NCBI GenBank assembly: GCA_041674405.1
Contig: JBAYVT010000003.1
Span: 74,074 to 138,073 of the forward strand
From: Patescibacteria group bacterium
Lineage (GTDB): Bacteria > Patescibacteriota > UBA1384 > XYA2-FULL-43-10
Direction: 5' to 3'
Length of the DNA stretch: 64,000 nt
The position numbers and the translations under genes were made by a program. How positions within the stretch are numbered: the stretch's first letter is position 1; the number at the start of each line of letters is the position of its first letter. The notes beneath the pieces were generated by a model. It made no database searches and was not told the origin of the DNA. It saw nothing but the letters and a program-made list of their open reading frames with translations. This document shows, piece by piece, positions 5,598 to 53,261 of the stretch.

Positions 5598-5651
5598 ATC
5601 CCTCCTGTTTTATGTTCCTGCTACTATTATAGTTTTTTTGCAAGCAATATC

Positions 5652-5676
5652 AAAACGGCTCACCGTGAGCCGTTTT
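5652..5676. terminator. rho-independent terminator-like hairpin (aaaacggctcac/gtgagccgtttt) followed by T-rich tract
   Basis: Perfect 10-12 bp inverted repeat read in sequence, between the two minus-strand genes. Confidence 0.4.
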
Positions 5677-5851
5677 GATCATTTATTTTTAAAAAATTTA
5701 GAATCCGTATGTACTTAAATTTTACATTTAGGCCAATTTTGCAAAAAATAGTATTGATTCAAAGCGGGATACTAAGCGCTGGAGGGGGTAGCGCTTAGTA
5801 TCCCGCTCCCCTTTGCTGCAAGCTAAAAGATATCACTTATCAGCTTGCGGC

Positions 5852-6575: not shown

Positions 6576-7628
6576 TTAATAAAGAGGCAGATTGACTGTG
6601 AAGGTGCTGCCCTCATTGGGTTTTGAGTCGGCAGAAATAGCTCCACCATGTAGTTCTACTATGCGTTTGGCAATTGAGAGCCCAAGGCCATAACTTTTTG
6701 TTTTGTCTTTTGATCTAGAAGAATCGGCCCGGTAGAAACGACCAAAAATATGCGGCAGATCAGAAGGCTCGATACCAACACCCTGATCCTTGATTTTAAT
6801 TTCGGCATGCTGGTGTTCCTTTTTTATCATGATAGATATTTTTGACTCCTCTGGGCTGTATTTGATCGCGTTATCAAGAAGTATGACAAACAATTCAATC
6901 AAGCTCGGCCTATCACCCTTAACTTTGGCTTCGGCAAAATCATTTTCAAAACTTATTTTTTTGCTTTTGGCAATTTTTTCAATTTTTTCATAGGCCTCAA
7001 CAGCAACTTCTGACAAAGAAATTTCTTTGAATTCTTTGTGCGAGTTATCTTCATATTTTGCCAGTTTCAAAAGGGCGTTAGATAGCGTTTCCAATTTTCC
7101 AATTTCTTCCAAGTTGCTATTTAGTAGTTTTTTCGCTTCGCTCAAACTGATTTTTTGGTCGCGCAGGTTCACCTCAATTTCTGATCTCATGGCCGTAAGC
7201 GGGGTTTTTAGTTCATGAGAAGCGTCGGCAGCAAAACGGCTTTGTGCCAACATCATATCTTCGATCGGCTTTAGAGCCCTTTGCGCAAAATAGTACGATA
7301 AGAGTGACGACAAAACCAAAATTAACAGATTGAAGTAGATTAGATTCAATTGCAGGCGACCATTGGTTTCATCGATCTGTTCGTCGCGAATTTTTTCAAG
7401 TTCAGAGATGATCGGATTGCAGTTAACTTCTTCGCAAACGTTTTGCGAAGGTTGAATATTTTTTAAAATTCCGGTTTGGCGCCTTAAGCCCTGTCCGACC
7501 TCTCTGGCAGAAATTTGATAAATGGCCGCAGAAAAAGACACGCTAATGATCATAATGATCAAAACATAGAACAACGTAAGTTTAAGATAAGCGATTTTAA
7601 AATGCATAATAGATATCTCAAATTTCAA
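6576..7628 (-). CDS. sensor histidine kinase (two TM helices, HisKA + HATPase_c)
   Basis: H-box ADASHELKTPLTAMRSE. N, G1 and G2 boxes DQGVGIEPSDLPHIFGRFYRAD...GLGLSIAKRIVELHGG. Confidence 0.85.
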   Translation of the reverse strand: MKFEISIMHFKIAYLKLTLFYVLIIMIISVSFSAAIYQISAREVGQGLRRQTGILKNIQPSQNVCEEVNCNPIISELEKIRDEQIDETNGRLQLNLIYFNLLILVLSSLLSYYFAQRALKPIEDMMLAQSRFAADASHELKTPLTAMRSEIEVNLRDQKISLSEAKKLLNSNLEEIGKLETLSNALLKLAKYEDNSHKEFKEISLSEVAVEAYEKIEKIAKSKKISFENDFAEAKVKGDRPSLIELFVILLDNAIKYSPEESKISIMIKKEHQHAEIKIKDQGVGIEPSDLPHIFGRFYRADSSRSKDKTKSYGLGLSIAKRIVELHGGAISADSKPNEGSTFTVNLPLY

Positions 7629-7719: not shown

Positions 7720-8391
7720 TCAGCCTATTTTGTATCCGAATCCTCTTACCGTCTGAATCAATTCCGGTTTTTTGGGGAATGGCTTATCGATTTTGTTTCG
7801 CAGGTAACCGATGTAAACCTCAACGGTATTGGGCAAAATATCAGCATCGTAGTCCCAAACATGGGCGATAATGCTGTCTTTGGTCAAAATCCTTTTTGGA
7901 TTTCTCATCATGTATTCCAATAGTGCAAATTCCTTGTTTGAAAGCAGAATTTTCTTCTCGCCACGCAATACATCGAATGTCGAAGTATTCAGGGTTAAGT
8001 CTTCGATTTTGAGGGTATCGGGGGTTATTTCCTGTGGACGGCGCATCAGCGCGCGAACCCGAGCCAAAAGTTCTTCAAAGGCAAAAGGCTTGGTAAGATA
8101 GTCGTCCGCTCCTGCATTCAAACCCTCTACCCTGTCTTCAATCTTATCTTTGGCCGTGAGAATCAAAATAGGCGTATTATTTTTCTTGTCGCGTAAAGCT
8201 CGGCAGATATTTATTCCATCAACCCCGGGTAACATTCTGTCCAAGATTATCAGATCGTACTCAATCGTTGCGGCCTGGCCAAGCCCATCTTCCCCATCAT
8301 AGGAAACATCAACAGCAAAAGATTCCTGGGAAAGCCCTTTTTTGATCGCATTTGCTATCTTATGATCGTCTTCGATTACTAATATCCGCAT
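7720..8391 (-). CDS. response regulator, OmpR/PhoB family (receiver + winged-helix)
   Basis: MRILVIEDD...DLIILDRMLPGVDG receiver domain. C-terminal VRGFGYKIG winged-helix signature. Confidence 0.9.
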   Translation of the reverse strand: MRILVIEDDHKIANAIKKGLSQESFAVDVSYDGEDGLGQAATIEYDLIILDRMLPGVDGINICRALRDKKNNTPILILTAKDKIEDRVEGLNAGADDYLTKPFAFEELLARVRALMRRPQEITPDTLKIEDLTLNTSTFDVLRGEKKILLSNKEFALLEYMMRNPKRILTKDSIIAHVWDYDADILPNTVEVYIGYLRNKIDKPFPKKPELIQTVRGFGYKIG

Positions 8392-8399
8392 GTTTTTAT

Positions 8400-8752
8400 C
8401 TTATAACTAATATGTAACAACTAATAATCTGTTGAATAATTTCCCTCAGTTTTTCGTTTAAAGCCCCGAAGAGACCATTGGGGTTATTAGTTCTAAGTTG
8501 ATAATATACTATATTATCTGAGAAATTGCTGTGATTTTTAACTAAAAAGTTAAATCTAATAACTAATATCCAAATGAATAATCTTCTTTGGTTTTTCGTT
8601 TTTCGCCCTGAAGGGGCCCCTTTGGGGTTATTAGTTTTAGGGTTAATATCTGTGCTAGAATAAGTTGTCTATAATTTTTGAAAGGTTCCTTTGGTTATTA
8701 GTTTTTTCGCCCCGACGGGGCCCCATTGGGGTTATTAGCTGTTAGATAATTT
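8400..8752. promoter_or_regulatory. divergent promoter region containing three copies of a ~45-bp repeat unit (TTTTCGTTT...GCCCCGA(A/C)GGGGC...TTGGGGTTATTAGTT) plus AACTAATAA/TTATTAGTT inverted half-sites
   Basis: Copies at ~8450-8492, 8592-8636 and 8691-8740. Each carries a GC palindrome and the TTGGGGTTATTAG(T/C)T motif, and lies between the divergent RR and PHP genes. Confidence 0.4.
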
Positions 8753-9520
8753 ATGGAATATATTGAAAAATTTGGAAAAGCTGACCTTCATATTCATAGT
8801 ACTTTTTCTGATGGCAGCAATTCAATCGAGGAAATTCTTGATTATACGGAAACAAAAACCGACCTCAATATCATAGCCATTTGCGATCATGATACGGTCG
8901 AAGGTGCATATTTGGCAAAAAAGATTGCTCATGAAAAAAATCTTAGAATAAAGGTTGTTATTGGCGAAGAAATCTCAACAAAGGAAGGACATGTGGTTGC
9001 TCTTTTTATCGAGAAAGCCATCCCCCCAGGTTTATCGCTGCCCGAAACATTAGATCAGATCGAATATCAAGGTGGTTTGGCAATCGCTCCTCATCCCATG
9101 TTTCACACTAGAGTTCGTGGTAAAGATGAGGCGGTAATGGATGGAATCGGTTTTGTGAATTTGATCAAATACAAGGAGAAGTTCACCGGTGTTGAGATTG
9201 TGAATGCCACCCCTTGGATGGGACGCAAGAATTTAAATGCCCATTTTATAAATAGCTCTCTTGTGTTCAAATCGGAAACCGGCGGATCGGATGCCCATAT
9301 TCTTGATGCGATCGGAAAGGGCTACACGGCATTCGAGGGCAAAGATATTAAGAGCTTGAAATATGCACTTGAAGTCGGGCAGACGATTGCCATAGGTGTC
9401 CGCTGGAAAACATTGTCGCTTCTAAAATATGCTTTCTTTTTTATCCCGAAAGGAATTCGTATTTTTTTCTTCACTCTGCTGCATGGTTTCACCAAAAAAC
9501 GGCCACAAATCGATCTTTAA
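8753..9520 (+). CDS. PHP-domain metal-dependent phosphoesterase
   Basis: N-terminal DLHIHSTFSDGS PHP motif with additional His/Asp-rich motifs. C-terminal hydrophobic tail. Confidence 0.7.
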   Translation: MEYIEKFGKADLHIHSTFSDGSNSIEEILDYTETKTDLNIIAICDHDTVEGAYLAKKIAHEKNLRIKVVIGEEISTKEGHVVALFIEKAIPPGLSLPETLDQIEYQGGLAIAPHPMFHTRVRGKDEAVMDGIGFVNLIKYKEKFTGVEIVNATPWMGRKNLNAHFINSSLVFKSETGGSDAHILDAIGKGYTAFEGKDIKSLKYALEVGQTIAIGVRWKTLSLLKYAFFFIPKGIRIFFFTLLHGFTKKRPQIDL

Positions 9521-10327: not shown

Positions 10328-11023
10328 TTATTTTAGCGAGCTATCGCCATCATTAAACCCAAACTCGATGTGCGAGCGGTCGCAGAATGGCTTGTTCTTG
10401 GATTTGCCGCAGCGGCAAAGGGTGACGCGGTTGCGGACTTCGTAGGTTTCACCATTTGCAGATTCTACTGGAATTTCCCCTTTCACCCAAAGTGGACCGG
10501 AAATTTTCATGTCTGGATCTTCAATAATGCCAATAGACTTTTCAAGCTTTGGTTCAATAATTTTTCCCGTTTTCTTGTCGCGCACAACGAGACGGCCAGA
10601 CGGGCAATCGCAGCATTCTTCTATAAGCATTTTTTTGGAATCTGGGTCAGATGATTCTCCTACTAGATTCCAGGCAGTATCTCCGCGATCGCAAAATCTG
10701 CCCGAGGCGCAGATTTTGCTCTCATCATACATAACTGCATCCGGACCATCCAAAACTTCGGCCTTGTCAAAAAAATTCTCAAATTCTGCTGTTTCTGTGC
10801 AATCAACACCAGCTGTCATATGTGTTTTATCACAATATGGCTTACTCTTAGATTTCCCGCAACGGCAGAGGTGATAATGTTCACTCTTGGGAAATTTTTC
10901 GCCGTCTTTCCACCTCTCCGAAATCCCATTGCCATCGCCGACAATTATTTGCCTCTGAAGCGGAACATTCCCGGTCACTTCGTAAGGCCCATCTTTAATA
11001 ATTTTAATCCTCTTCTTTGACAT
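10328..11023 (-). CDS. CDGSH-type iron-sulfur domain protein (two CDGSH motifs)
   Basis: CRCGKSKSKPYCDKTH and CRCGKSKNKPFCDRSH match C-x-C-x2-S-x3-P-x-C-D-x-[ST]-H, plus additional Cys clusters. Confidence 0.7.
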   Translation of the reverse strand: MSKKRIKIIKDGPYEVTGNVPLQRQIIVGDGNGISERWKDGEKFPKSEHYHLCRCGKSKSKPYCDKTHMTAGVDCTETAEFENFFDKAEVLDGPDAVMYDESKICASGRFCDRGDTAWNLVGESSDPDSKKMLIEECCDCPSGRLVVRDKKTGKIIEPKLEKSIGIIEDPDMKISGPLWVKGEIPVESANGETYEVRNRVTLCRCGKSKNKPFCDRSHIEFGFNDGDSSLK

Positions 11024-11256
11024 TTTCGCCTCGACTTTATGATCTTTATGAACTTTAACTACATAGAATTATATCAGCTATCACCAAGTTATTATTGTAG
11101 AAGTTAACAAAAGAAGCTCTTGTATTCAATCATAATGAATCTGAGATGAAAGAATCCGGCGAGATGATGGAGAAAATGGATAAAGACATGGATAGTAAGG
11201 ACATGTCTTCGGGTGAGATGTAATTACAACGCTTCTTTTTGGCTCAAAGCTTAAGC

Positions 11257-11294
11257 AAAAAAGGGCGGTGAGAAACCAGTCTACAGCTTCTCAC
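11257..11294 (-). terminator. rho-independent terminator for the aminotransferase gene (stem gtgagaa/ttctcac, U-tract on minus strand)
   Basis: 7-bp inverted repeat with a 13-nt loop, preceded on the plus strand by aaaaaa. Confidence 0.4.
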
Positions 11295-11315
11295 TCGATC
11301 CCCCCTACTTCTTGA

Positions 11316-12491
11316 TTACCCCGCCTTCATGGCGCGGGCGATCCGGTCCAATCCCTCCTCGATCTCCAGATCGTTGTACGTAAGGCTCATCCGGAAGTAG
11401 CCTTCCCCGCCCGCGCCGAACGCCGAGCCCGGGGTGAGGACGACGTGCGCCGTTTCCACCAGATGCTCACAGAACTCCGCACTGGTCGAGAACCCATCCG
11501 GGATCGGCGCCCAGATGTAAGGAGTCGCCTGAGGCGGTTCGATGCTCCAGCCCAGCGAGTTCAAGGTACCGACGACGAGGTCCCGGCGCTGGCCATAGAC
11601 GAAACAGATGTCCTCGCAGGCCCGCCGATATTCTTTGAGCACCCGGGCACCGGCGAACTGGATGAAACGAGGGGTCCCATTGTCGGTGTTGCCCTTGTAG
11701 CGCTTCAGGTACGACAACACCTCTGGGTTGCCGACGGCCGCGCCGATCCGCCACCCGGTCATGTTAAACCACTTGCTGTGAGAGATGATCTCCACAGCGA
11801 CCTCAGACGCCCCTAGTACCTCCAGGATGCTCGGCTGCCGGATGTTGCCCAGATTCACCAGGCTGTAGGCGGCGTCGTGGACGACAAGGAGCTTGTGCTC
11901 CTTTGCGAATTCGACGGCCTCAGCGAAGAAGTCGAGGCCAGCCACCGCAGTGGTGGGGTTGTTGGGGTAGTTGAGCCAGAGGATCTTCGCTTTCTGGCAA
12001 ATCACCCCCTCGATACTACCCAGGTCGGGGAGCCAGTACGGCGGCTCGAGCTTCATGTGGTAGGTGTTCGCCCCGAACATGTGCTGGGCGATCTCGTAGG
12101 TAGGGTATCCGGGGTCAGGCACAATCCCGAGATCCAGCGGATTCAGGAAGGCCCCAGCGAGCTGGACGATCGCCTCTTTGGACCCACTCGTCCGCAAGAT
12201 CTGGTTGTCCTCGAGCGTGACGCCGAAGTAGCTCTGGTAGAACCGGCACACCTCGGAGTCGAAGTCCGTGACAGGCATGTCATCCCCGTAGCGAAACCGA
12301 TCGGGATCCGTGACATCGTTGGCGGCACGGACCATCTCATCCACAGCACAAAGCGGAGTGGGCATGTCGGGGTCGCCGATTCCGAACGAGACGACATGGA
12401 CACCGCTCGCCTTGAGAGTGTTGATCTTCTCCCGCAGCGAGGCAAACGGATATGGCGGCAATGATGCGAGACGGCCTGAAGGCTCAAGCAT
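11316..12491 (-). CDS. class I/II PLP-dependent aminotransferase (LL-diaminopimelate/Ala aminotransferase-like)
   Basis: N-terminal LPPYPFASL...SFGIGDPDMPTP. PLP-lysine motif SHSKWFNMTGWRIG. About 62% GC island in the AT-rich backbone. Confidence 0.8.
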   Translation of the reverse strand: MLEPSGRLASLPPYPFASLREKINTLKASGVHVVSFGIGDPDMPTPLCAVDEMVRAANDVTDPDRFRYGDDMPVTDFDSEVCRFYQSYFGVTLEDNQILRTSGSKEAIVQLAGAFLNPLDLGIVPDPGYPTYEIAQHMFGANTYHMKLEPPYWLPDLGSIEGVICQKAKILWLNYPNNPTTAVAGLDFFAEAVEFAKEHKLLVVHDAAYSLVNLGNIRQPSILEVLGASEVAVEIISHSKWFNMTGWRIGAAVGNPEVLSYLKRYKGNTDNGTPRFIQFAGARVLKEYRRACEDICFVYGQRRDLVVGTLNSLGWSIEPPQATPYIWAPIPDGFSTSAEFCEHLVETAHVVLTPGSAFGAGGEGYFRMSLTYNDLEIEEGLDRIARAMKAG

Positions 12492-28828: not shown

Positions 28829-28865
28829 CTAGTCCTTAGTTTGTAGTCCTTAGTTTGTAGTAATG

Positions 28866-28894
28866 AAAAAATGACCATGTGATGGTCATTTTTT
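28866..28894. terminator. bidirectional rho-independent terminator (aaaaaatgaccat gtg atggtcatttttt)
   Basis: Perfect 13-bp palindrome between convergent rbr and rpoD. Confidence 0.55.
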
Positions 28895-28944
28895 CATATT
28901 TGTATTTGCTGAGGACTACGGACTACTCACTAGAGACTAGCGAA

Positions 28945-34941: not shown

Positions 34942-35141
34942 AATTCTCCTTTGAATTTAAATATTTGTACAAAGAATAATAATATTTCACTACTTTACAT
35001 AATAACAGAAATATTGTTTTACTTAGCCAATGGTTCAATAATAGTCATTTGATCAATAATATTTCATTTACTATATTTCTCTGGTATAAGCATATTATGG
35101 TTGTCTCGACGTTATCCTAAAGGAAGGACTGGTGGATACGA

Positions 35142-36518
35142 TTGAAAAAGGTACCGACTAACCGTAATCCGAGGAGAGGCAAGCTGGAAGGAGAGGGAAA
35201 GACCAAGCGGCTGTACCATGCAGTCGGCAGAGGATTTGGGGAGGTGGTGATCGTAGAGCAGAAGAACACGATCACCAAGCACAACGACCCCTCCCAGACC
35301 GAGGAGTTCGAGTCTAAGGGCCGCTGTTCCACGACATTCGCCTCGCGGGTTTTCGAGCTGCTCACCGCGGCCGGAATCCCCAATGCCTTCATTCGCCAGA
35401 CGGGCGACAACGAGTTTCTCATGCACAGATGCAAGATGCTGGGACTCGAGGTCGTCATCCGCCGTCTCGCGATGGGCAGCTACTTTGACCGCAACCCCCA
35501 CATGAGGCCCAAGGCTGGTGATCCGGCTCCGCGCCTCCACCGGCTGGTCATCGAGATGATGCTGAAGACCACGGAAGGGATCGTTCCGCTCTTGAACGGA
35601 AGCACGCACGACACCGGCATCCGCGATCCCAAGCGGCAAGATCCGCTCATTGTGGATCCATCGGCCGAGATCTGGAAGCTCGCACACCCGCATCTCCCGC
35701 TCTGGGACACCGAGTCCTACATCGGCGAGATCGAGGCCAATCGCGTGATGGATCCTGTCCATCTCGAACAGATCGAACGGCTGGCGCGCCTCATCTTCCT
35801 TCTCCTGGAGTCAGCACTCACCAATGTGGGTAGCCGACTGGCGGACCTCAAACTCGAGTTCGGCTTCCTGCCAGACGGAACACTGGTGGTCGCCGACGTG
35901 ATCGACCCGGATTCGCTCCGGCAAGCCGTGTGGAACAACGATCTGGACGCGTGGATAGACTTGAGCAAGCAGAGCTTCCGGGACGGCATAGGCCTTGAGG
36001 AAGTCGAGCGCAAGTACCTGAACGCGGCCATGCTCGCGGAGAGGATCCGTGTTCCTCGCCAAGCGCTCATCACGTGGATAGGATCGCCCAAGGACACCCA
36101 CCCGCCGGTGGACAGTAAGCTACTGCTTCACACCGGCATCACCCATGAGAAGGTCATGATCTCGGGACACAAGCAGCCCGAGCACGTTCTTCCCGAACTC
36201 GAGCACCTCCTCGCCCAGTACCCCGATGGCGGCGTGATTATCGCCAAGGTGGGGATGTCCAACGGCTTGGGCCCGATCCTCGCCGCTCGCACCTCTCTGC
36301 CCGTGATCTCGGTCGTCGCCAACGCGGCCCCGGACGATCACGGGGTAGTACACCTGGAAGATGCGTGGAGTTCGCTTCGCATGCCCTCAGACGTGCCGAA
36401 CCTCACGGTGCTAAGCGAGAAGAACGCCATCACCGCGGCGCTGAACATCCTTGCCCGGAAGGATCCGGTGCTGTACATGTTCCGGCAGTACGAGATCGAG
36501 AAGCTTGCGGCGGTGTAA
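35142..36518 (+). CDS. bifunctional SAICAR synthetase (PurC) / class II AIR carboxylase (PurE) fusion, PAICS-like
   Basis: N-terminal domain: EGKTKRLY...GIPNAFIRQTGDNEFLMHRCKMLGLEVVIRRLAMGSYF (PurC). C-terminal domain: ITWIGSPKD...ISGHKQPE...VIIAKVGMSNGLGPILAARTSLPVISV (PurE, HK as in class II). TTG start in track, uncertain. About 62% GC. Confidence 0.75.
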   Translation: MKKVPTNRNPRRGKLEGEGKTKRLYHAVGRGFGEVVIVEQKNTITKHNDPSQTEEFESKGRCSTTFASRVFELLTAAGIPNAFIRQTGDNEFLMHRCKMLGLEVVIRRLAMGSYFDRNPHMRPKAGDPAPRLHRLVIEMMLKTTEGIVPLLNGSTHDTGIRDPKRQDPLIVDPSAEIWKLAHPHLPLWDTESYIGEIEANRVMDPVHLEQIERLARLIFLLLESALTNVGSRLADLKLEFGFLPDGTLVVADVIDPDSLRQAVWNNDLDAWIDLSKQSFRDGIGLEEVERKYLNAAMLAERIRVPRQALITWIGSPKDTHPPVDSKLLLHTGITHEKVMISGHKQPEHVLPELEHLLAQYPDGGVIIAKVGMSNGLGPILAARTSLPVISVVANAAPDDHGVVHLEDAWSSLRMPSDVPNLTVLSEKNAITAALNILARKDPVLYMFRQYEIEKLAAV

Positions 36519-36574
36519 CCGCCAGCGAGCCCGTACAAAGTTCTTCCATCCCGGAAGACAATAGCAGCAAACGC

Positions 36575-36603
36575 TTCAGGCGGCCCGACTCGGGCCGCCT
36601 GAA
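36575..36603 (+). terminator. strong GC hairpin after purCE (ttcaggcggcccg act cgggccgcctgaa)
   Basis: Perfect 13-bp stem. Weak U-tract. Confidence 0.45.
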
Positions 36604-36897
36604 ATGCTACAGAATCAAAATTCTCATTAATTATCCGATGATATACCGACATAAAATACATTAAGAGAAGGAGGCCCGCGCAGTACAGTCGGGCCTCGTT
36701 GCTCGGCGGATTACCGCCATCGGTCACCTTCTTCTCTCCTTGTGATTCTTTAGCGCCCAACGAATGAGAAACTATTAAAAATTAGACGAAATATTTCCAG
36801 CAGAATCAACAATACTAAGTTTATTGTTTGGCATATGCAAAAGTATTTCAGCATGACTGCAAAAATTGAAATAGAGAATATATTTGAAAACGATAAT

Positions 36898-37710
36898 TTA
36901 CTTGCGATATTTTTTCAGCAATCTATCGCTTACCGGAACAATTATCATCAGCCCGGCTAATAGTCCCAGGACCAGCCACTTATTTTCGGAGACAGGATTT
37001 TGCGGCCCGGTTTCCGGCAAAGCTGTTATCGTAGTAGTTGTAGCGGGTGTAGCAGGATTGTTAACAACAATTCTAACTGTTGACGAAAGATAAGTGTCCT
37101 CGCCTTCAGCCTTTGCCTTGTCGAGATCAAATACCCCCGCAATCCTTTCTGCATCTGGACCAACAACATAAAATGTGCCAGTTATTACTGTCTGATCGGG
37201 AACGTCAGATTTTATTCTAGCCGAGATTGACCCAATCTCGGCGTCCATCGTGGTGTCCAGACCATTACTCAAAATAATTGCTTCGGGCGAAGAATATTCG
37301 AAAGCATTAGTGTCAAGGTCCAAATCTCCCATTCCAGAGCCGAAAATATCAAGATTCTCAAGATATTCCGCGTTTGTGAAAGAAACGCCAAAAATCGGGT
37401 TTATGCTAGTGTTACCCTCGACCCGAGTGAGTCCGAGAAAGGTCAAATTATCACCAGGACTTGCTGTCAACGTTTCGCCAAGGCCACCGGCCATTTCCGG
37501 ATTGGCCGAATAGTCGGAGTAGTTATACAAATCATCATTTGTCGCCTCAAGAAAACAATTCTCTATCTTGCACACCAATGCGGCCATATAGAGAGAATTC
37601 CCCTCTCCTAAGTCGTAGTATGTTTCCGGAGTAGCGCCAGCAATCGTGGGAAATAATGAACTTATAGCCATAGCGATCATCGTAGTCCAGACTAGACAAA
37701 ATTTTTTCAT
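36898..37710 (-). CDS. LPXTG-anchored cell-surface protein (sortase substrate)
   Basis: N-terminal signal peptide. C-terminal LPETG followed by a hydrophobic helix and KKYRK. Confidence 0.65.
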   Translation of the reverse strand: MKKFCLVWTTMIAMAISSLFPTIAGATPETYYDLGEGNSLYMAALVCKIENCFLEATNDDLYNYSDYSANPEMAGGLGETLTASPGDNLTFLGLTRVEGNTSINPIFGVSFTNAEYLENLDIFGSGMGDLDLDTNAFEYSSPEAIILSNGLDTTMDAEIGSISARIKSDVPDQTVITGTFYVVGPDAERIAGVFDLDKAKAEGEDTYLSSTVRIVVNNPATPATTTTITALPETGPQNPVSENKWLVLGLLAGLMIIVPVSDRLLKKYRK

Positions 37711-39852: not shown

Positions 39853-39943
39853 TGGCGGTGGGAGAGGGATTCGAACCCTCGAGACCCTTGCGAGCCTACA
39901 CGCTTTCCAAGCGTGCGCACTAGACCAACTATGCGATCCCACC
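39853..39943 (-). tRNA. tRNA-Ser (anticodon GGA), class II with long variable arm
   Basis: Reverse-complement cloverleaf read by hand: acceptor ggtggga/tcccacc, anticodon loop TTGGAAA, 18-nt variable arm, T-arm gggttcgaatccc, discriminator G and CCA. Confidence 0.8.
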
Positions 39944-39989: not shown

Positions 39990-40720
39990 AGCCTAGAAGG
40001 CTCCCGGGAGATTCCTCGAAACCTGGATCTTCAGTCAGCGTCCGCGGCGAGCCGCACCTTGGTCCCTCCAACCGCTCCCACTATGGGCCTTCGGAGTAAC
40101 GCCCCTTGCAGGTTTGTTCCTCCCGTTGGGCTTCGTGCTCTTGGTCTTAACCTTACCCAAGCTAGACACCTCCCTGTAATCTACAGCCGAGATGGAAATA
40201 ATATAGCTGATCAGATTCAATTGGTCAAATGAAAGGAACAGCTCCGGCGAATGCCGGAGCTTACGACTTGCGTCCCAACTCAAATGAAGATGAAAGGAAG
40301 AGGGCTGCCGCAGAGAGTTTATAGCCGTGCCAAGGCATCTCTCTGCAGCTTGGTGCAATTCGGTGCTGCAGCCGTTGTTGCGATCATTGCTTCAATATAG
40401 GAGTATACTCACGCAGACCACCGACGGCCAGGCGCTATGGCCCGGCTTGTCACACCATGGGCTACCACCTCCTTACGGGAGGAGAAAAACGGCGACGCAG
40501 TGCCGCTTCTCCAATATTAATATAACACTGCAATATGCAGTGTCAAATAGCCTAAAATGGTGTATCCTGGGCGCGCGGCTGGGCGCGCCCAGGACCGGAT
40601 GGTAATGTGCGGCAAAGCCGCGAATCCCCCGGGATGGATTGGATAGGGGGTGGTTGCTTGACTTTGGCCGACTCTGGCCTTAAGTCCAGCGGGTATGTAA
40701 GATAAATGTTAGCACGAGAA
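39990..40720. other. GC-rich (about 57%) ORF-poor hairpin-dense segment: candidate structured ncRNA (RNase P-like motifs?) or decayed foreign gene
   Basis: No ORF over 110 aa, and those present are low complexity. Perfect hairpin ctgggcgcgc/gcgcgcccag at ~40567-40592 and several more. CCCGGCUU / AAGCCGGGCCAUAG-like strings at ~40435-40455. Confidence 0.2.
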
Positions 40721-40786
40721 AAAATATTGTCAATAAAATATACCATCACGAAGATGGTATATTTTTTAACCACAAAAAATTTATTT

Positions 40787-43138
40787 TTAGCGATCGATAA
40801 TTTCCGAAAGCATAAGCCGCTTCTCAACCGAAGCAATGATTCGCCGTGTAGGCACGATCATATCCGGTGAGACCGAGACAGAAGTTGTGCCAGCCTTCAC
40901 CATCATTTCGGTGATTTCCGGATATACACTAGGAGCTTGGCCACAGATCGAGCAAGTGACATTTCGCGCACGGCAAGTTTTTATGACGTATTGGATCGAA
41001 GACACAACCGCTTCATTTCTTTCGTCAAATAACGCAGCCAGATCCTGATTGTCGCGGTCTGCTCCCAAGGTTAGCTGGGTCAGATCATTCGAACCAATGG
41101 ATATGCCGTCAATCCCAAGATCGAGAAATTTATCAAGCAAAATTACATTGGAAGGAATTTCACACATCATCCAAAGCTTAAAATCCGGTGATTGGATTAG
41201 GCCATTATCTTCCACGAGCTTTTTAACTTTTTTCATTTCGTCAACGGTACGAACAAACGGAATCATGAGCCACAAATTTTTGAGATCATATTCATCCCGA
41301 ACCCTCTTGATCGCATCTAGTTCCAATTTGAAAAGATCAGGCTCTTTGATATAGCGGGAAGCGCCACGATAGCCAATCATCGGATTGTTCTCTGCCGGCT
41401 CATATTTTTCACCGCCCTTTAAACCTTTATATTCATTTGTTTTAAAATCTGTCGCGCGGTAAACTACCGGACGAGGAGCAAATGCCTGGGCAATGGTTCG
41501 CATACCTTCTACGAGCTTGTCTGTGTATTCTTTCCCTCTTCCCGCCTCAAACATTGCTCTCGGGTGTTCACCAATTTCGGCTATCATGAATTCCGCGCGC
41601 AAAAGACCAACTCCATCAACCGGTTCTGCCGCTATTTTTTCTGCAAGATGCGGCTCGGCTAAATTGACATAAACTTTTGTGCCGGTAACCGGAACTTCCT
41701 CAGAAACAAGTTTGCCAGCAGGAGTCCCTGGAGCCGTTGCGACATCTTCAGGGGCCGACTGGCTTTTGATTTTGCCTTTATAGACCAAGCCCTTGCCGCC
41801 ATCGACAGTGATCATTTGCCCAGTTTTAAGAACATGAGTAGCGGTGCCGGTGCCAACAACGCAAGGAATGCCCAATTCACGCGAGACAATAGCTGCATGG
41901 CAAGTTCGTCCTCCGGTATCGGTAACGATAGCTTTGGCACGGCGCATCGCCGGCACAAAATCAGGAGTTGTTTGCTCAGTGACAAGCACATCGCCAGAAA
42001 CGACCTTGTCTATTTCGTCAGGTTTATGAATAAGTTTGACCGGTCCAAATGCTGTGCCTAGAGACGCTGCAGCACCCTTTAAGAGTACTTCCGCTTTCCC
42101 GGCATCAATATCCCCTTGTTCTTGTGTCCCCGGCTGCTCTAATTTCTCATCTCGATTTTCGATTTTCCGCTTACCCAAAGTCGTGATCGGCCTTGACTGC
42201 ACCATATAAATCTTTCCCCTTTCAATAGCAAATTCCGTATCCTGCGGTTTACCATAATGTTTTTCGATAAGCAAGCCGATTTTCGCCAGCGCAATAATTT
42301 GATCATCGGTAAGTTTTTGTTTTTTGCGCAACTCTGCTGGAACATTTACATGCTTTTCGCCCTCTCTTCCGGATTTGACAATTTTCCAGGGTTGTTCATT
42401 AATTTCTTTTTCAAGAATTTCAAAAGGATCTTTCGATATCACGTATCTGTCTGGAGTGACAGAACCGGAGACTAAGGCCTCGCCGTAGCCGTAACCGGCT
42501 TCGATAGAAAGTTTGTTCAGATCTTCAGAAACAGGGTCGACGGTAAACATTATTCCCGAAAACTCAGAATCAACCATAACTTGCACAGGAACCGCTAAGC
42601 CAACCTTCATATGATCAAATTTATTGATAATGCGATAATAAATCGCCCTTGCCTCGAAGAGCGAGGCAAAGCACTTTTGAACCGCTTCTACCACTTCGTT
42701 ACCTCCGGTGATATTCAAAAAAGTGGCTTGCTGACCGGCAAATGAAGCATCAGGCAAATCTTCCGCAGTTGCGGACGACCTTACTGCAACAGAAAATCCA
42801 CCCAGCTCCCTGTAGTGTTCTTTGATTTCCTTGATAAGATCGGCCGGCATTTTTGCGGCGATAATTGCCGATTTAATTTTTTTTGCAACATTATTAAGCT
42901 CGCGGCTTTTTTCTGGATCGAGACCTTTCAGAGAACTGATGATTTTTGAGCGAAGGTTTGTTTTCTCGAGAAAATAAAAATAGGCGTTAGCGGTGACGAT
43001 AAATCCATTTGGTACTGGAATTTTAGCGTTATATAGCTCACCAAGGTTTGCGCCCTTGCCACCAACCCGTGGAATATCTTCCTTGTGCGCTTCAGAGAAC
43101 CACAATATAAGCTTTGGGTTTTTCTTTTTCTTAAGCAT
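40787..43138 (-). CDS. ppsA: phosphoenolpyruvate synthase (pyruvate, water dikinase)
   Basis: N-terminal PEP/pyruvate-binding domain (IPRVGGKGANLGEL). Phospho-His GGRTCHAAIVSRELGIPCVVG. C-terminal PEP-utilising domain NDLTQLTLGADRDN. Start moved to the ATG at 43138 with an AGGAGG SD (track used GTG 43174). Confidence 0.8.
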   Translation of the reverse strand: MLKKKKNPKLILWFSEAHKEDIPRVGGKGANLGELYNAKIPVPNGFIVTANAYFYFLEKTNLRSKIISSLKGLDPEKSRELNNVAKKIKSAIIAAKMPADLIKEIKEHYRELGGFSVAVRSSATAEDLPDASFAGQQATFLNITGGNEVVEAVQKCFASLFEARAIYYRIINKFDHMKVGLAVPVQVMVDSEFSGIMFTVDPVSEDLNKLSIEAGYGYGEALVSGSVTPDRYVISKDPFEILEKEINEQPWKIVKSGREGEKHVNVPAELRKKQKLTDDQIIALAKIGLLIEKHYGKPQDTEFAIERGKIYMVQSRPITTLGKRKIENRDEKLEQPGTQEQGDIDAGKAEVLLKGAAASLGTAFGPVKLIHKPDEIDKVVSGDVLVTEQTTPDFVPAMRRAKAIVTDTGGRTCHAAIVSRELGIPCVVGTGTATHVLKTGQMITVDGGKGLVYKGKIKSQSAPEDVATAPGTPAGKLVSEEVPVTGTKVYVNLAEPHLAEKIAAEPVDGVGLLRAEFMIAEIGEHPRAMFEAGRGKEYTDKLVEGMRTIAQAFAPRPVVYRATDFKTNEYKGLKGGEKYEPAENNPMIGYRGASRYIKEPDLFKLELDAIKRVRDEYDLKNLWLMIPFVRTVDEMKKVKKLVEDNGLIQSPDFKLWMMCEIPSNVILLDKFLDLGIDGISIGSNDLTQLTLGADRDNQDLAALFDERNEAVVSSIQYVIKTCRARNVTCSICGQAPSVYPEITEMMVKAGTTSVSVSPDMIVPTRRIIASVEKRLMLSEIIDR

Positions 43139-43289: not shown

Positions 43290-43751
43290 TCAATCACTAC
43301 TTACAAGCTCATTAAAAACCTTCTTTGCAAGATCGAAGTCATAACCTTTTCTGTATAGGCTTCCCAAAATTTTTTGATAGAGCCTTCCACGATCAGTATC
43401 TTTGTTCCTGTCAAGAATCTTCTGACCGATTTCGAGCGCATTTTTATATTCGAGATCTGAATCAATATTTGATAATACATCTTCTATTAACCCGCTTGAT
43501 ATATGTGCCTTTATCAGGCGAACTTTAATTTTTTGCTTCCCCTCGCCAGATAATGATTTGGAACGAACCATATTTTTTGCAAATTTCTCATCATCAAGAA
43601 ATTTTTTCTGGATCAAAAATTGGATTGTTTCTTCTATTTCATTCTCGGGAAATTCTTTCAATTTGAGTTTGTTTCGAACTTCAAAAATGCTTCTGTCTCG
43701 AAGCTCGAGTAAATATAGCGCATAATTAAGCGGGCTATCTATTTTTTTCAT
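43290..43751 (-). CDS. recX: RecX family regulatory protein
   Basis: Immediately downstream of recA. Helical repeat protein of about 150 aa with a RecX-like N-terminus (YALYLLELRDRSIFEVRNKL). Confidence 0.6.
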   Translation of the reverse strand: MKKIDSPLNYALYLLELRDRSIFEVRNKLKLKEFPENEIEETIQFLIQKKFLDDEKFAKNMVRSKSLSGEGKQKIKVRLIKAHISSGLIEDVLSNIDSDLEYKNALEIGQKILDRNKDTDRGRLYQKILGSLYRKGYDFDLAKKVFNELVSSD

Positions 43752-43841
43752 TACTTAATCAGGTAGATTTTTCACTCGACCCAAAGGGTCCCCTTTCCTG
43801 AAGGAAAGCCCTAGGCTTGGGGTTCAGAATGACAATCTTTG

Positions 43842-44888
43842 CTACAGCGCCTCATTTCGCGCCTTGTCTTCGGCAACGGACTTATCTTTTATTTCTTCAG
43901 CAATCTTCGGGTTTTGCTTCAAAAATTCTCTGGCACCTTCCTTGCCTTGGCCAAGTTTCTCGTCGCCATATGAAAGCCAGGCACCGGCCTTATCTACAAT
44001 TCCAAATTTGATTCCAAGATCAACAAGTTCTCCTTCATAATCGATGCCCTGATTGAACATAATGTCGAATTCCGCAGTTTTGAATGGGGGAGCAACTTTG
44101 TTTTTGACAACTTTAACAGCCACATGATTCCCAACCTGATCCTCGCCTCGTTTCAAAACTGCTTTGCGGCGAATATCTAAACGGACAGATGAATAAAACT
44201 TTAACGCATTTCCGCCAGTCGTCGTTTCAGGATTCCCAAACATCACACCGATTTTCATACGAATCTGGTTGATAAAGATTAATACTGTTTTTGATTTGGC
44301 AACAGCGCCAGTCAATTTGCGAAGTGCTTGTGACATCAGCCTAGCCTGAACGCCCATCATCGAATCACCCATCTCGCCTTCTATTTCCGCTCGCGGAACC
44401 AGGGCAGCAACAGAATCAACAACGATGACATCTAGAGCATTGGAACGGATAAGCGTCTCTGTTATCTCTAGCGCTTGTTCGCCGTTATCCGGCTGGGAAA
44501 TAAGCAGATTTTCAAGGTCAACGCCAATTTTCTTGGCATATTCCGGGTCAAGCGCATGCTCGGCATCGATGAATGCCGCATTTCCACCGCGTTTTTGGGC
44601 CTGTGCCACAATTGACAAAGAAAGAGTCGTTTTACCGGACGATTCCGGACCATAGATTTCGATCACTCGGCCGCGTGGCACACCGCCAACACCGAGCGCA
44701 AGATCAAGTGCAAGTGAACCAGTCGGAATTGTTTCCACGTTTAGGCGAGCGCCATCGCGCATTGTCATTATTGCGCCCTTGCCAAATTGTTTTTCTATCG
44801 AAGACAACGCTGCCTCCAGCGCCATCGATTTGCCACTGCTTACGGATTTTTTATTTTCAATTTCCTCTTCGCCTTTTTTTCTCGCCAT
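43842..44888 (-). CDS. recA: recombinase RecA
   Basis: Walker [11 protein letters not shown]1/L2 regions. [14 protein letters not shown]. Confidence 0.95.
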
Positions 44889-53123: not shown

Positions 53124-53261
53124 GCCACCGAGGTTCGTCTGAAAAAGGCTCTGCACTCCTTTATCCTCTTCAGGCGAGCCTTTTTCTATTCATAGAATAT
53201 GATTAAAAAAATTCCCCGAAGAAATTCGGGGAATTTTTTCTATGAGATTAAATTTTTACAA

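Follow-up and report, generated by a model that had tools for sequence, protein, structure and literature searches.

The divergent intergenic region between an OmpR-family response regulator (RR, here also RR1) gene and a PHP/PHP_C phosphoesterase gene, located in a 64-kb stretch of chromosomal DNA from an uncultured bacterium of the Patescibacteria, or candidate phyla radiation (CPR), contains three related repeat units, which we call U1, U2 and U3. We refer to the whole 64-kb stretch as the window, and to the intergenic region (8392-8752, 361 bp) as the RR-PHP gap. The reading that we prefer, and hold with about even confidence, is that all three are copies of one palindromic repeat of intergenic DNA, which is modular, non-coding and lineage-specific and of the kind represented by repetitive extragenic palindromes (REPs) and miniature inverted-repeat transposable elements (MITEs). 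At two loci, repeat copies are present in the window and absent from the orthologous site; related modules form a family that is spread over three loci; U1 and U2 have inverted-repeat arms; and only the unique sequence blocks of the gap are conserved in relatives. The units look like recent gains, and the element family appears to be undescribed, but of a familiar kind.

The repetition in the RR-PHP gap is real and non-random. A first-pass annotation of this DNA had quoted three unit strings, and each of them occurs exactly once, at 8451-8492, 8592-8636 and 8691-8740. When <=3 mismatches are allowed, TTGGGGTTATTAGTT has 7 matches against 2.1 expected, a number that none of the shuffles reached (0/100), and 4 of these matches lie at 8478-8740. 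The string GTTATTAGT has 4 exact matches against 0.41 expected, 3 of them in the RR-PHP gap, and 9 of the 20 one-mismatch AACTAATAA sites in the 64 kb fall within 8405-8740. The locus is also found on ENA ERZ27247358 contig k141_137659 (152 kb), on an SRR6484325 Logan contig and on a JGI 3300037067 contig, and the whole intergenic sequence is identical across three separate assemblies, so the units are not an assembly artefact.

The full unit is longer than was first proposed. The annotation had described three units of ~45 bp, and the relationship among the three holds but the size does not, since the alignment of 8393-8507 with 8535-8650 runs over ~112 nt, and a third copy, at 8686-8750, is partial. 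We divide the full unit of ~112 nt into the modules L, H and R. U1 (8393-8507) and U2 (8535-8650) consist of L+H+R and are 69-74% alike, and U3 (8686-8750) has H+R only, with another direct copy of CCTTTGGTTATTAGTT where L would stand, on the left; all three lie on the plus strand and are recovered by nhmmer with E=3e-30, 5.5e-33 and 4e-17, respectively. The L module (~68 nt) is AT-rich, contains several AACTAATA motifs and has TTTTTCG at its 3' end. The H module (~24 nt, TCG-CCCY-GAM-GGGG-CCCC-WTT-GGGG) holds two adjacent 4-bp G/C (G4/C4) hairpins, and the R module is formed by GGTTATTAGTT, which contains TTATTAGTT, plus a tail (TTATTAGTTnTAnG..ATAAT). Part of L recurs in R as its inverted complement, so that U1 and U2 each have imperfect inverted repeats at their ends, with arms of 13-23 nt that are 78-92% complementary: 8390-8412 and 8485-8507 in U1 (23 nt, 78%), and 8551-8563 and 8627-8639 in U2 (13 nt, 92%, or ~20 nt at ~80% with gaps allowed).

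The copies differ in how well these modules are preserved. The H cores, all on the plus strand, lie at 8463-8483 in U1 (GCCCCGAAGAGACCATTGGGG, a degenerate twin hairpin), at 8603-8627 in U2 (TCGCCCTGAAGGGGCCCCTTTGGGG, two adjacent 4-bp G/C hairpins) and at 8707-8731 in U3 (TCGCCCCGACGGGGCCCCATTGGGG). U2 is the most intact copy, and U1 is the most degenerate, with its hairpin 1 broken. The GC palindrome that had been ascribed to every unit is perfect only in U3 (GCCCCGACGGGGC); U2 has one G-T pair (GCCCTGAAGGGGC), and in U1 the palindrome is broken (GCCCCGAAGAGAC). The GGTTATTAGTT box is found on the plus strand at 8482-8492, 8626-8636 and 8693-8703, and as GGTTATTAGCT at 8730-8740; inverted AACTAATA copies are found at 8405, 8419, 8554 and 8561. 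The complementary AACTAATA sites that had been noticed close to the RR start (8405 and 8419) do exist, and there are more at 8540-8569. Pairwise identity among the copies is 63-70% for L and 70-77% for H+R, the closest H+R pair being U2 and U3 (77%). With spacings of 144 and 104 bp, copies only 70-77% alike and no cas family in the Pfam results, the earlier statement that this is not a CRISPR array stands. Tandem Repeats Finder reported only a trivial 7-mer in the region, so there is no true tandem array.

The comparison with orthologous gaps separates what is old in this region from what has been added. One relative, at locus L104, is fully syntenic with the window (zf-CDGSH, M23 peptidase, PHP, RR and histidine kinase), and its RR is 85% identical to ours. 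Its RR-PHP gap is only 184 bp against the 361 bp of the window, and contains two blocks shared with the window (Blocks A and B), the RR ribosome-binding site GAGGAG and a 9-nt periodic TYCATAAAG array; it has no unit, GC hairpin, TTATTAGTT or significant match to the L, H and U models. Locus L105 shows the same synteny, an RR that is 85% identical and again a 184-nt gap without units. The closest PHP homologues, at L004 (81% identical) and L005 (80%), both keep Blocks A and B, and U2 and U3 are absent upstream of PHP in both; the distance from Block A to Block B is 25 nt in these two loci versus 111 nt in the window, and that from Block B to the PHP ATG is 28-31 nt versus 83 nt.

Block A (8503-8545, core GAGAAATTGCTGT) lies between U1 and U2, is conserved in L104 and L004, aligns without gaps to L104 over 8503-8545 and includes a 20-nt exact match with a relative (E=1e-5). 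A promoter scan finds minus-strand promoter-like sites in the region of Block A, which is probably the RR promoter region. Block B (8647-8669, plus strand, ATCTGT(G/T)nTAGAAT..GT) lies between U2 and U3 and is conserved in L004, L005 and L104. It holds TGCTAGAAT (8653-8661), of the form TGnTAGAAT, which we read as an extended -10 element and as the likely PHP promoter. These two unique inter-unit blocks are all that is conserved between the window gap and its relatives; thus they are the conserved, presumably functional promoter pieces, and the three units are lineage-specific additions. Since the inter-unit blocks are unique and conserved with relatives, the three units did not arise through simple tandem duplication. 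Nor are Blocks A and B diverged duplicates of each other: the similarity between the two inter-unit stretches is not significant, as 474 of 1000 shuffles score as well. U1 abuts the RR start codon and fills the entire stretch from Block A to the RR ATG. The first ~11 nt of U2 (to 8545) overlap Block A, which places the true left edge of U2 near 8546.

Related modules are found at two further sites of the source contig, which we extended to 83 kb by joining the loci L116 and L118 to the window. One is a fourth H-type copy (43776-43822, plus strand) between recA (43842-44888, minus strand) and recX (43290-43751, minus strand). Both of its ends match the unit cores (its minus-strand reading is AACCCCAA ... 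GGGYCGA..GAAAAA), and its hairpin 2 has a 22-nt loop expansion. In the relative L120, whose recX is 65% identical, this site is empty: GAAT stands where the window has a 47-nt insert, and the flanks are conserved, with TGTCATTCTGAAC on one side and GTGAAAAATCT (GTGAArAATCT, then ATG) on the other. No target duplication is visible at the H insertion when it is compared with L120. All four H cores of the source genome sit in intergenic DNA, and all four copies follow AAC on the minus strand, which is the sense strand of recA and RR.

The recA-recX spacer has a history of its own in the relative. When the window spacer (43752-43841) is aligned with L120:1900-2283, L120 is seen to carry a gene for a 93-aa GIY-YIG nuclease inserted there. 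Given the 47-nt H insert in the window, this spacer has received two different insertions in two lineages.

The other site is an L-only copy (L118:15437-15502) located ~2.6 kb before the start of the window, with nhmmer E=1e-4 for the unit model and 3.5e-15 for the L-only model. This copy abuts the ATG of a second OmpR-type response regulator gene (RR2), which is downstream of a MASE3-PAS histidine kinase gene. RR2 is 51% identical to RR1, and L has the same orientation at RR2 as in U1 at RR1. The L module of U2 is 70% identical to the RR2 copy, 11 kb away, versus 69% to that of neighbouring U1, so relatedness within the family is not a matter of proximity on the contig; each of the three L pairs scores above all of its 2000 dinucleotide shuffles. 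The 83 kb thus hold three units at one locus, one H copy in the recA-recX spacer and one L copy at RR2, plus a marginal L-like match at L116:537-571.

Traces of similar sequences are also found in another species. L004 has an H-like core, CTCGACCCAAGGGATCCCCTTT, upstream of Block A, which over 22 nt is 91% identical to the recA-recX copy (E=0.04); for this region it is the second-best match to the whole window, after the orthologous block. In the closest relative (sample SRR30681611), the RR-PHP gap is where contigs L004 and L103 break off, at a GC hairpin or no more than ~10 nt from one (L004:1-45 and L103:1-40, with the end hairpins CCCCGCC...GGCGGGG and ATTCCCGA...TCGGGAAT), which suggests that the genome of this relative carries multi-copy hairpin repeats that break assembly.

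If the three units are REP/MITE-type repeats, they would have been added to an originally compact gap of ~184 bp and have expanded the promoter region to 361 bp. The element would spread, or would have spread, as a small non-autonomous repeat, either through a transposase that acts in trans on the hairpins or inverted repeats, or through recombination between copies. Current effects on regulation may then be side effects of where the copies landed, and any regulatory effect of the units is probably secondary. U1 would now serve as the RR leader, having replaced the 9-mer array and the Shine-Dalgarno sequence found in relatives. The window RR gene has no Shine-Dalgarno sequence (TAAGATAAAAACATG, 8375-8391), whereas its L104 ortholog has GAGGAG (GAGGAGCACATG, L104:4985-5003); upstream of PHP, a Shine-Dalgarno sequence is absent from all 4 loci compared. 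The right arm of U2 would occupy the -35 position of the conserved, likely PHP promoter, and U3, situated downstream of the likely PHP -10 element and upstream of the PHP ATG, would place a stable hairpin in the 5' untranslated region (UTR) of PHP.

The first-pass annotation had also offered a miniature element inserted three times, and this comes closer to the evidence than its other proposal, an operator. Related modules do occur at two other contig sites, one of them with an empty site in a relative; no further full-length copy, target-site duplication or transposase was found to go with them in the 83 kb. Several observations weigh against a REP/MITE-like repeat. Full-length units are found nowhere else in the 83 kb of the source contig. 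Target-site duplications are not definable, because the junctions relative to L104 and L004 are ambiguous in AT-rich sequence, and more generally intergenic alignments of such AT-rich DNA at 80-85% protein identity are ambiguous, so that loss in the relatives stays conceivable. Transposase, integrase and reverse transcriptase families are absent from the Pfam results for the 83 kb, which cover all but a few short open reading frames (ORFs) and leave about one quarter of the genes without a family. A pattern that spans the unit (TTTTCG-N14-24-TTGGGGTTATTAG, which would miss H-only or L-only copies) matched 38 loci among the GTDB representative genomes, 52 among the JGI metagenomes and 2 in IMG/VR, each by chance, in coding or unrelated DNA and without the hairpin; these sets were scanned without the source genome, and dispersal within that genome lies outside their scope. 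A blastn search of the intergenic region against a phage database gave no match. Finally, both RR genes of the contig have an L copy in the same orientation abutting the start codon; random insertion is unlikely to produce such an arrangement, and L may have a role as a leader or in regulation.

This last point leads to the main rival, in which no mobile element is involved. L, with or without H and R, would be a promoter or leader module of RR genes that was copied from RR2 to RR1 and then duplicated within the gap by short-homology recombination, giving RR1 tandem promoters or leaders. Besides the shared position and orientation of L at the two ATGs, the L copies are 63-70% alike while the RR proteins are only 51% identical, and possible recombination junctions can be pointed out: ATTTTTnAACTA is common to the left edge of U2 and ancestral Block A, and CATG(A)TTTTT opens each of the copies next to an RR gene. 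Yet the recA-recX H copy is unlinked to any RR gene and looks like a clean insertion, the RR1 orthologs are without L, no gene lies downstream of the L module of U2, and the consensus promoter scan finds nothing in L above threshold. We consider local amplification of this type unlikely, while giving it more weight than any of the rival explanations that follow.

In the other proposal the units form an operator array: GGTTATTAGTT/AACTAATA boxes would bind the adjacent OmpR-family RR, or another factor, and control the divergent RR and PHP promoters. The clustering is suggestive, with nine boxes packed into ~340 bp and next to none in the remaining 63.6 kb, three of them identical 11-mers despite diverged surroundings, and with an exact TTATTAGTT also found 8-16 nt upstream of the start of the second OmpR-type RR gene. 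However, that TTATTAGTT belongs to a whole L copy, and the two RRs that have a box upstream differ in their recognition region. The boxes are embedded in repeats of 45-112 nt, and copying of the larger unit is enough to explain why they recur. The arrangement does not fit either. OmpR/PhoB sites are direct-repeat half-sites ~10-11 bp apart from centre to centre, bound by a head-to-tail dimer. The boxes here start at 8405, 8419, 8540, 8554 and 8561 in one orientation and at 8484, 8628, 8695 and 8732 in the other, so that spacings of 7, 14, 37, 65-67 and 104-144 bp, combined with mixed orientation, do not agree with head-to-tail half-sites of 10-11 bp.

The orthologous promoters speak to the operator more directly. 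The annotation had itself named absence from orthologous promoters as a reason to abandon the idea, and the comparison finds units and boxes absent from the orthologous RR-PHP regions of L104/L105 and L004/L005. The box is absent as well from upstream of the RR gene in a Berkelbacteria relative (L106). A change of DNA specificity in the regulator is an unlikely explanation for orthologous promoters without boxes, since residues 177-200, 202-205 and 214-221, which from the OmpR/PhoB fold we take to include the recognition helix, are invariant in 6 of 6 RRs (the window RR and five orthologs with 79-86% identity). Nor is the pairing of PHP with RR kept more widely among CPR genomes: distant PHP homologues adjoin LytR, acyltransferase or HisRS genes and the RR of the Berkelbacteria relative follows rplT, and with such neighbours a conserved RR-PHP pairing can be set aside. 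Moreover, the relatives carry a different repeated motif at the RR promoter, the TYCATAAAG array. Arrays such as pho boxes and the OmpR F1-F4 sites do resemble the gap in having several short AT-rich boxes in a divergent promoter beside an OmpR-type RR gene, but the boxes of the window differ in spacing and orientation, in their non-conservation at orthologous promoters and in being parts of longer GC-hairpin repeats. A miniature repeat element fits better, and we judge an operator array to be doubtful.

The TYCATAAAG array deserves mention in its own right. Two to four copies of this motif (TYCATAAAG x2-4), with 9-nt periodicity and on the gene-sense strand, are found just upstream of the ribosome-binding site or start codon at 11033-11053 in the window, at L116:7050-7092 (on the source contig, ~2.9 kb past the end of the window), at L104:4950-4990 and at L004:50-90. 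The array follows a conserved TAGTTAAAAG and a TATAAT-like element. In the source genome, the genes that it precedes are those for zf-CDGSH (10328-11023, minus strand) and a DNA polymerase A. Two relatives have it ahead of the orthologous RR gene, and the RR promoter of the window genome is without it. We regard it as a better candidate than the three units for a real operator or leader element.

Could the units function as RNA on the plus strand? Here the hairpin followed by UUAUUAGUUUU would be an intrinsic terminator or attenuator, or the end of tandem small RNAs upstream of PHP. A terminator scan picks out U1 and U2 on the plus strand (3 sites where 0.5 are expected), U3 would fall in the PHP 5' UTR downstream of the conserved TGCTAGAAT, and the long units fold better than shuffled sequences on the plus strand (z=-1.9 for U1 and -2.7 for U2). 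The short cores, however, fold no better than shuffles (z=-0.6 to -1.1), and the plus-strand signal of hairpin plus TTATTAGTTTT has no gene upstream on that strand whose transcription it could end; the promoter scan gives no convincing promoter before U1 or U2. Compensatory changes are missing: across five copies the hairpins show no covariation, the G/C pairs being invariant except for one G-T pair and the one broken stem, hairpin 1 of U1 (MAFFT placed the L004 hairpin in a different register). In the recA-recX copy the transcribed strand is without a T-run, and the clear intrinsic terminators of this genome are of another style, with long A/T-flanked stems. The elements are absent in relatives, and no Rfam family matches, with nothing better than E=1.8 for 8300-8850 at permissive thresholds and only two tRNAs for the whole window at the gathering threshold. 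An RNA function for the units is thus quite improbable.

Small hydrophobic peptide genes, for example of the type I toxin kind, are more improbable still, and we reject them: ORFs do run through U2 (8574-8663, 29 aa) and U3 (8665-8745, 26 aa) and give similar hydrophobic peptides (FVFRPEGAPLGLLV and LVFSPRRGPIGVIS), but this likeness follows from the repeated DNA, T-rich DNA yields Phe, Leu and Val codons by default, the matching frame of U1 stops (TAA, 8458-8460), both ORFs are without a ribosome-binding site, TTG is the start codon of one of them, and the recA-recX and RR2 copies have no such ORF. An origin of replication with DnaA boxes was likewise discarded, as there is no TTATCCACA-like box and no turn in skew at 8.5 kb.

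The surroundings of the RR-PHP gap and the remainder of the window provide some further observations. Both the PHP protein and the RR have identical counterparts at NCBI, labelled 'MAG: ... [Patescibacteria group bacterium]'; many RRs, including several from Candidatus Berkelbacteria, share 75-86% identity with the window RR. The PHP gene occupies 8753-9520 on the plus strand and the RR gene 7720-8391 on the minus strand; the RR gene is followed by a histidine kinase gene (6576-7628) and then by the gene for a DUF5666 protein. Long perfect A/T-flanked palindromes that resemble bidirectional intrinsic terminators are found at 5649-5679, 28863-28897 and 53206-53239, and contrast with the short G4/C4 hairpins of the units. 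The region 40000-40850, which adjoins a tRNA-Ser (39853-39943), has no convincing genes and several GC-rich stems, for example one of 12 bp (10 of them G/C) at 40565-40594; Rfam gives no match for it, not even at E<0.1, and a structured RNA that has so far gone unrecognised may lie here. Two patches, 11001-12000 and 35001-37000, have 53-56% G+C against mostly 38-47% elsewhere in the window. They cover an aminotransferase gene (11316-12491) and a gene for a SAICAR synthetase/AIR carboxylase fusion (35142-36518), and may have been acquired horizontally.

If the three units are indeed REP/MITE-like repeats, then even a streamlined CPR genome carries small palindromic repeats, and between close relatives these repeats have approximately doubled a promoter region, replacing a ribosome-binding site and a leader array. 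A cluster of short boxes beside a regulator gene would then be seen not always to be an operator, and it was the comparison of orthologous loci that separated the two readings. For the annotation of this lineage, Blocks A and B and the TYCATAAAG arrays would be better candidates for control elements, and the L, H and R models offer a handle for finding further copies.

Among known repeat systems, the palindrome-associated transposable elements (PATEs) derived from IS200/IS605 resemble the H module in being centred on hairpins, and the same trinucleotide, AAC, precedes all four H copies, with no target duplication at recA-recX. Insertion by Y1 transposases occurs 3' of a short target, and no target duplication is expected. 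The differences are that no TnpA or TnpB gene was found in the 83 kb, and that known PATEs are much longer than the element of the window; AAC could equally be part of the element, and we take the resemblance as no more than a lead. A bolder proposal would make H an undescribed, tiny mobile twin-hairpin element of Patescibacteria that inserts 3' of AAC without target duplication and is mobilised in trans by a single-strand Y1 transposase (IS200/IS605- or RAYT-like), and the L-H-R units composites that carry a promoter or leader to new genes and thereby rewire two two-component regulators. We see this as speculative and somewhat less probable than the local amplification of a leader module. If H were mobile in this way, it would be the first REP-like system described in the CPR; a literature search on MITE and REP elements in CPR/Patescibacteria gave nothing relevant.

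The REPs and the bacterial interspersed mosaic elements (BIMEs) that they form are repetitive extragenic palindromes of Proteobacteria, mobilised by the REP-associated (RAYT) Y1 transposases. The window element differs from them in having no 5' GTAG/GTGG head (its cores start with TCG on the plus strand and are preceded by TTTTTCG on that strand or by AAC on the other), in being a pair of 4-bp hairpins instead of one long stem, in having only 4 copies in 83 kb, in the lack of a RAYT gene among the Pfam results for the 83 kb and in its patescibacterial host. Like REPs, however, the palindromes of the units are short (~24-40 nt), GC-rich, imperfect and exclusively intergenic, they occur singly or clustered with AT-rich linkers, their presence varies among related genomes, and they occupy sites inside operons (recA-recX) and in promoter regions. 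Compared with MITEs of the Correia, RUP and BOX type, the window element has no parent insertion sequence with matching ends in the 83 kb, an apparently low copy number and full-length copies at one locus only. What it shares with them is a non-coding unit of ~110 nt, bounded by imperfect inverted repeats and adjoining promoters and 5' UTRs, and its modular build from L, H and R, with partial copies that are without some of the modules, recalls the boxA, boxB and boxC modules of the pneumococcal BOX element.

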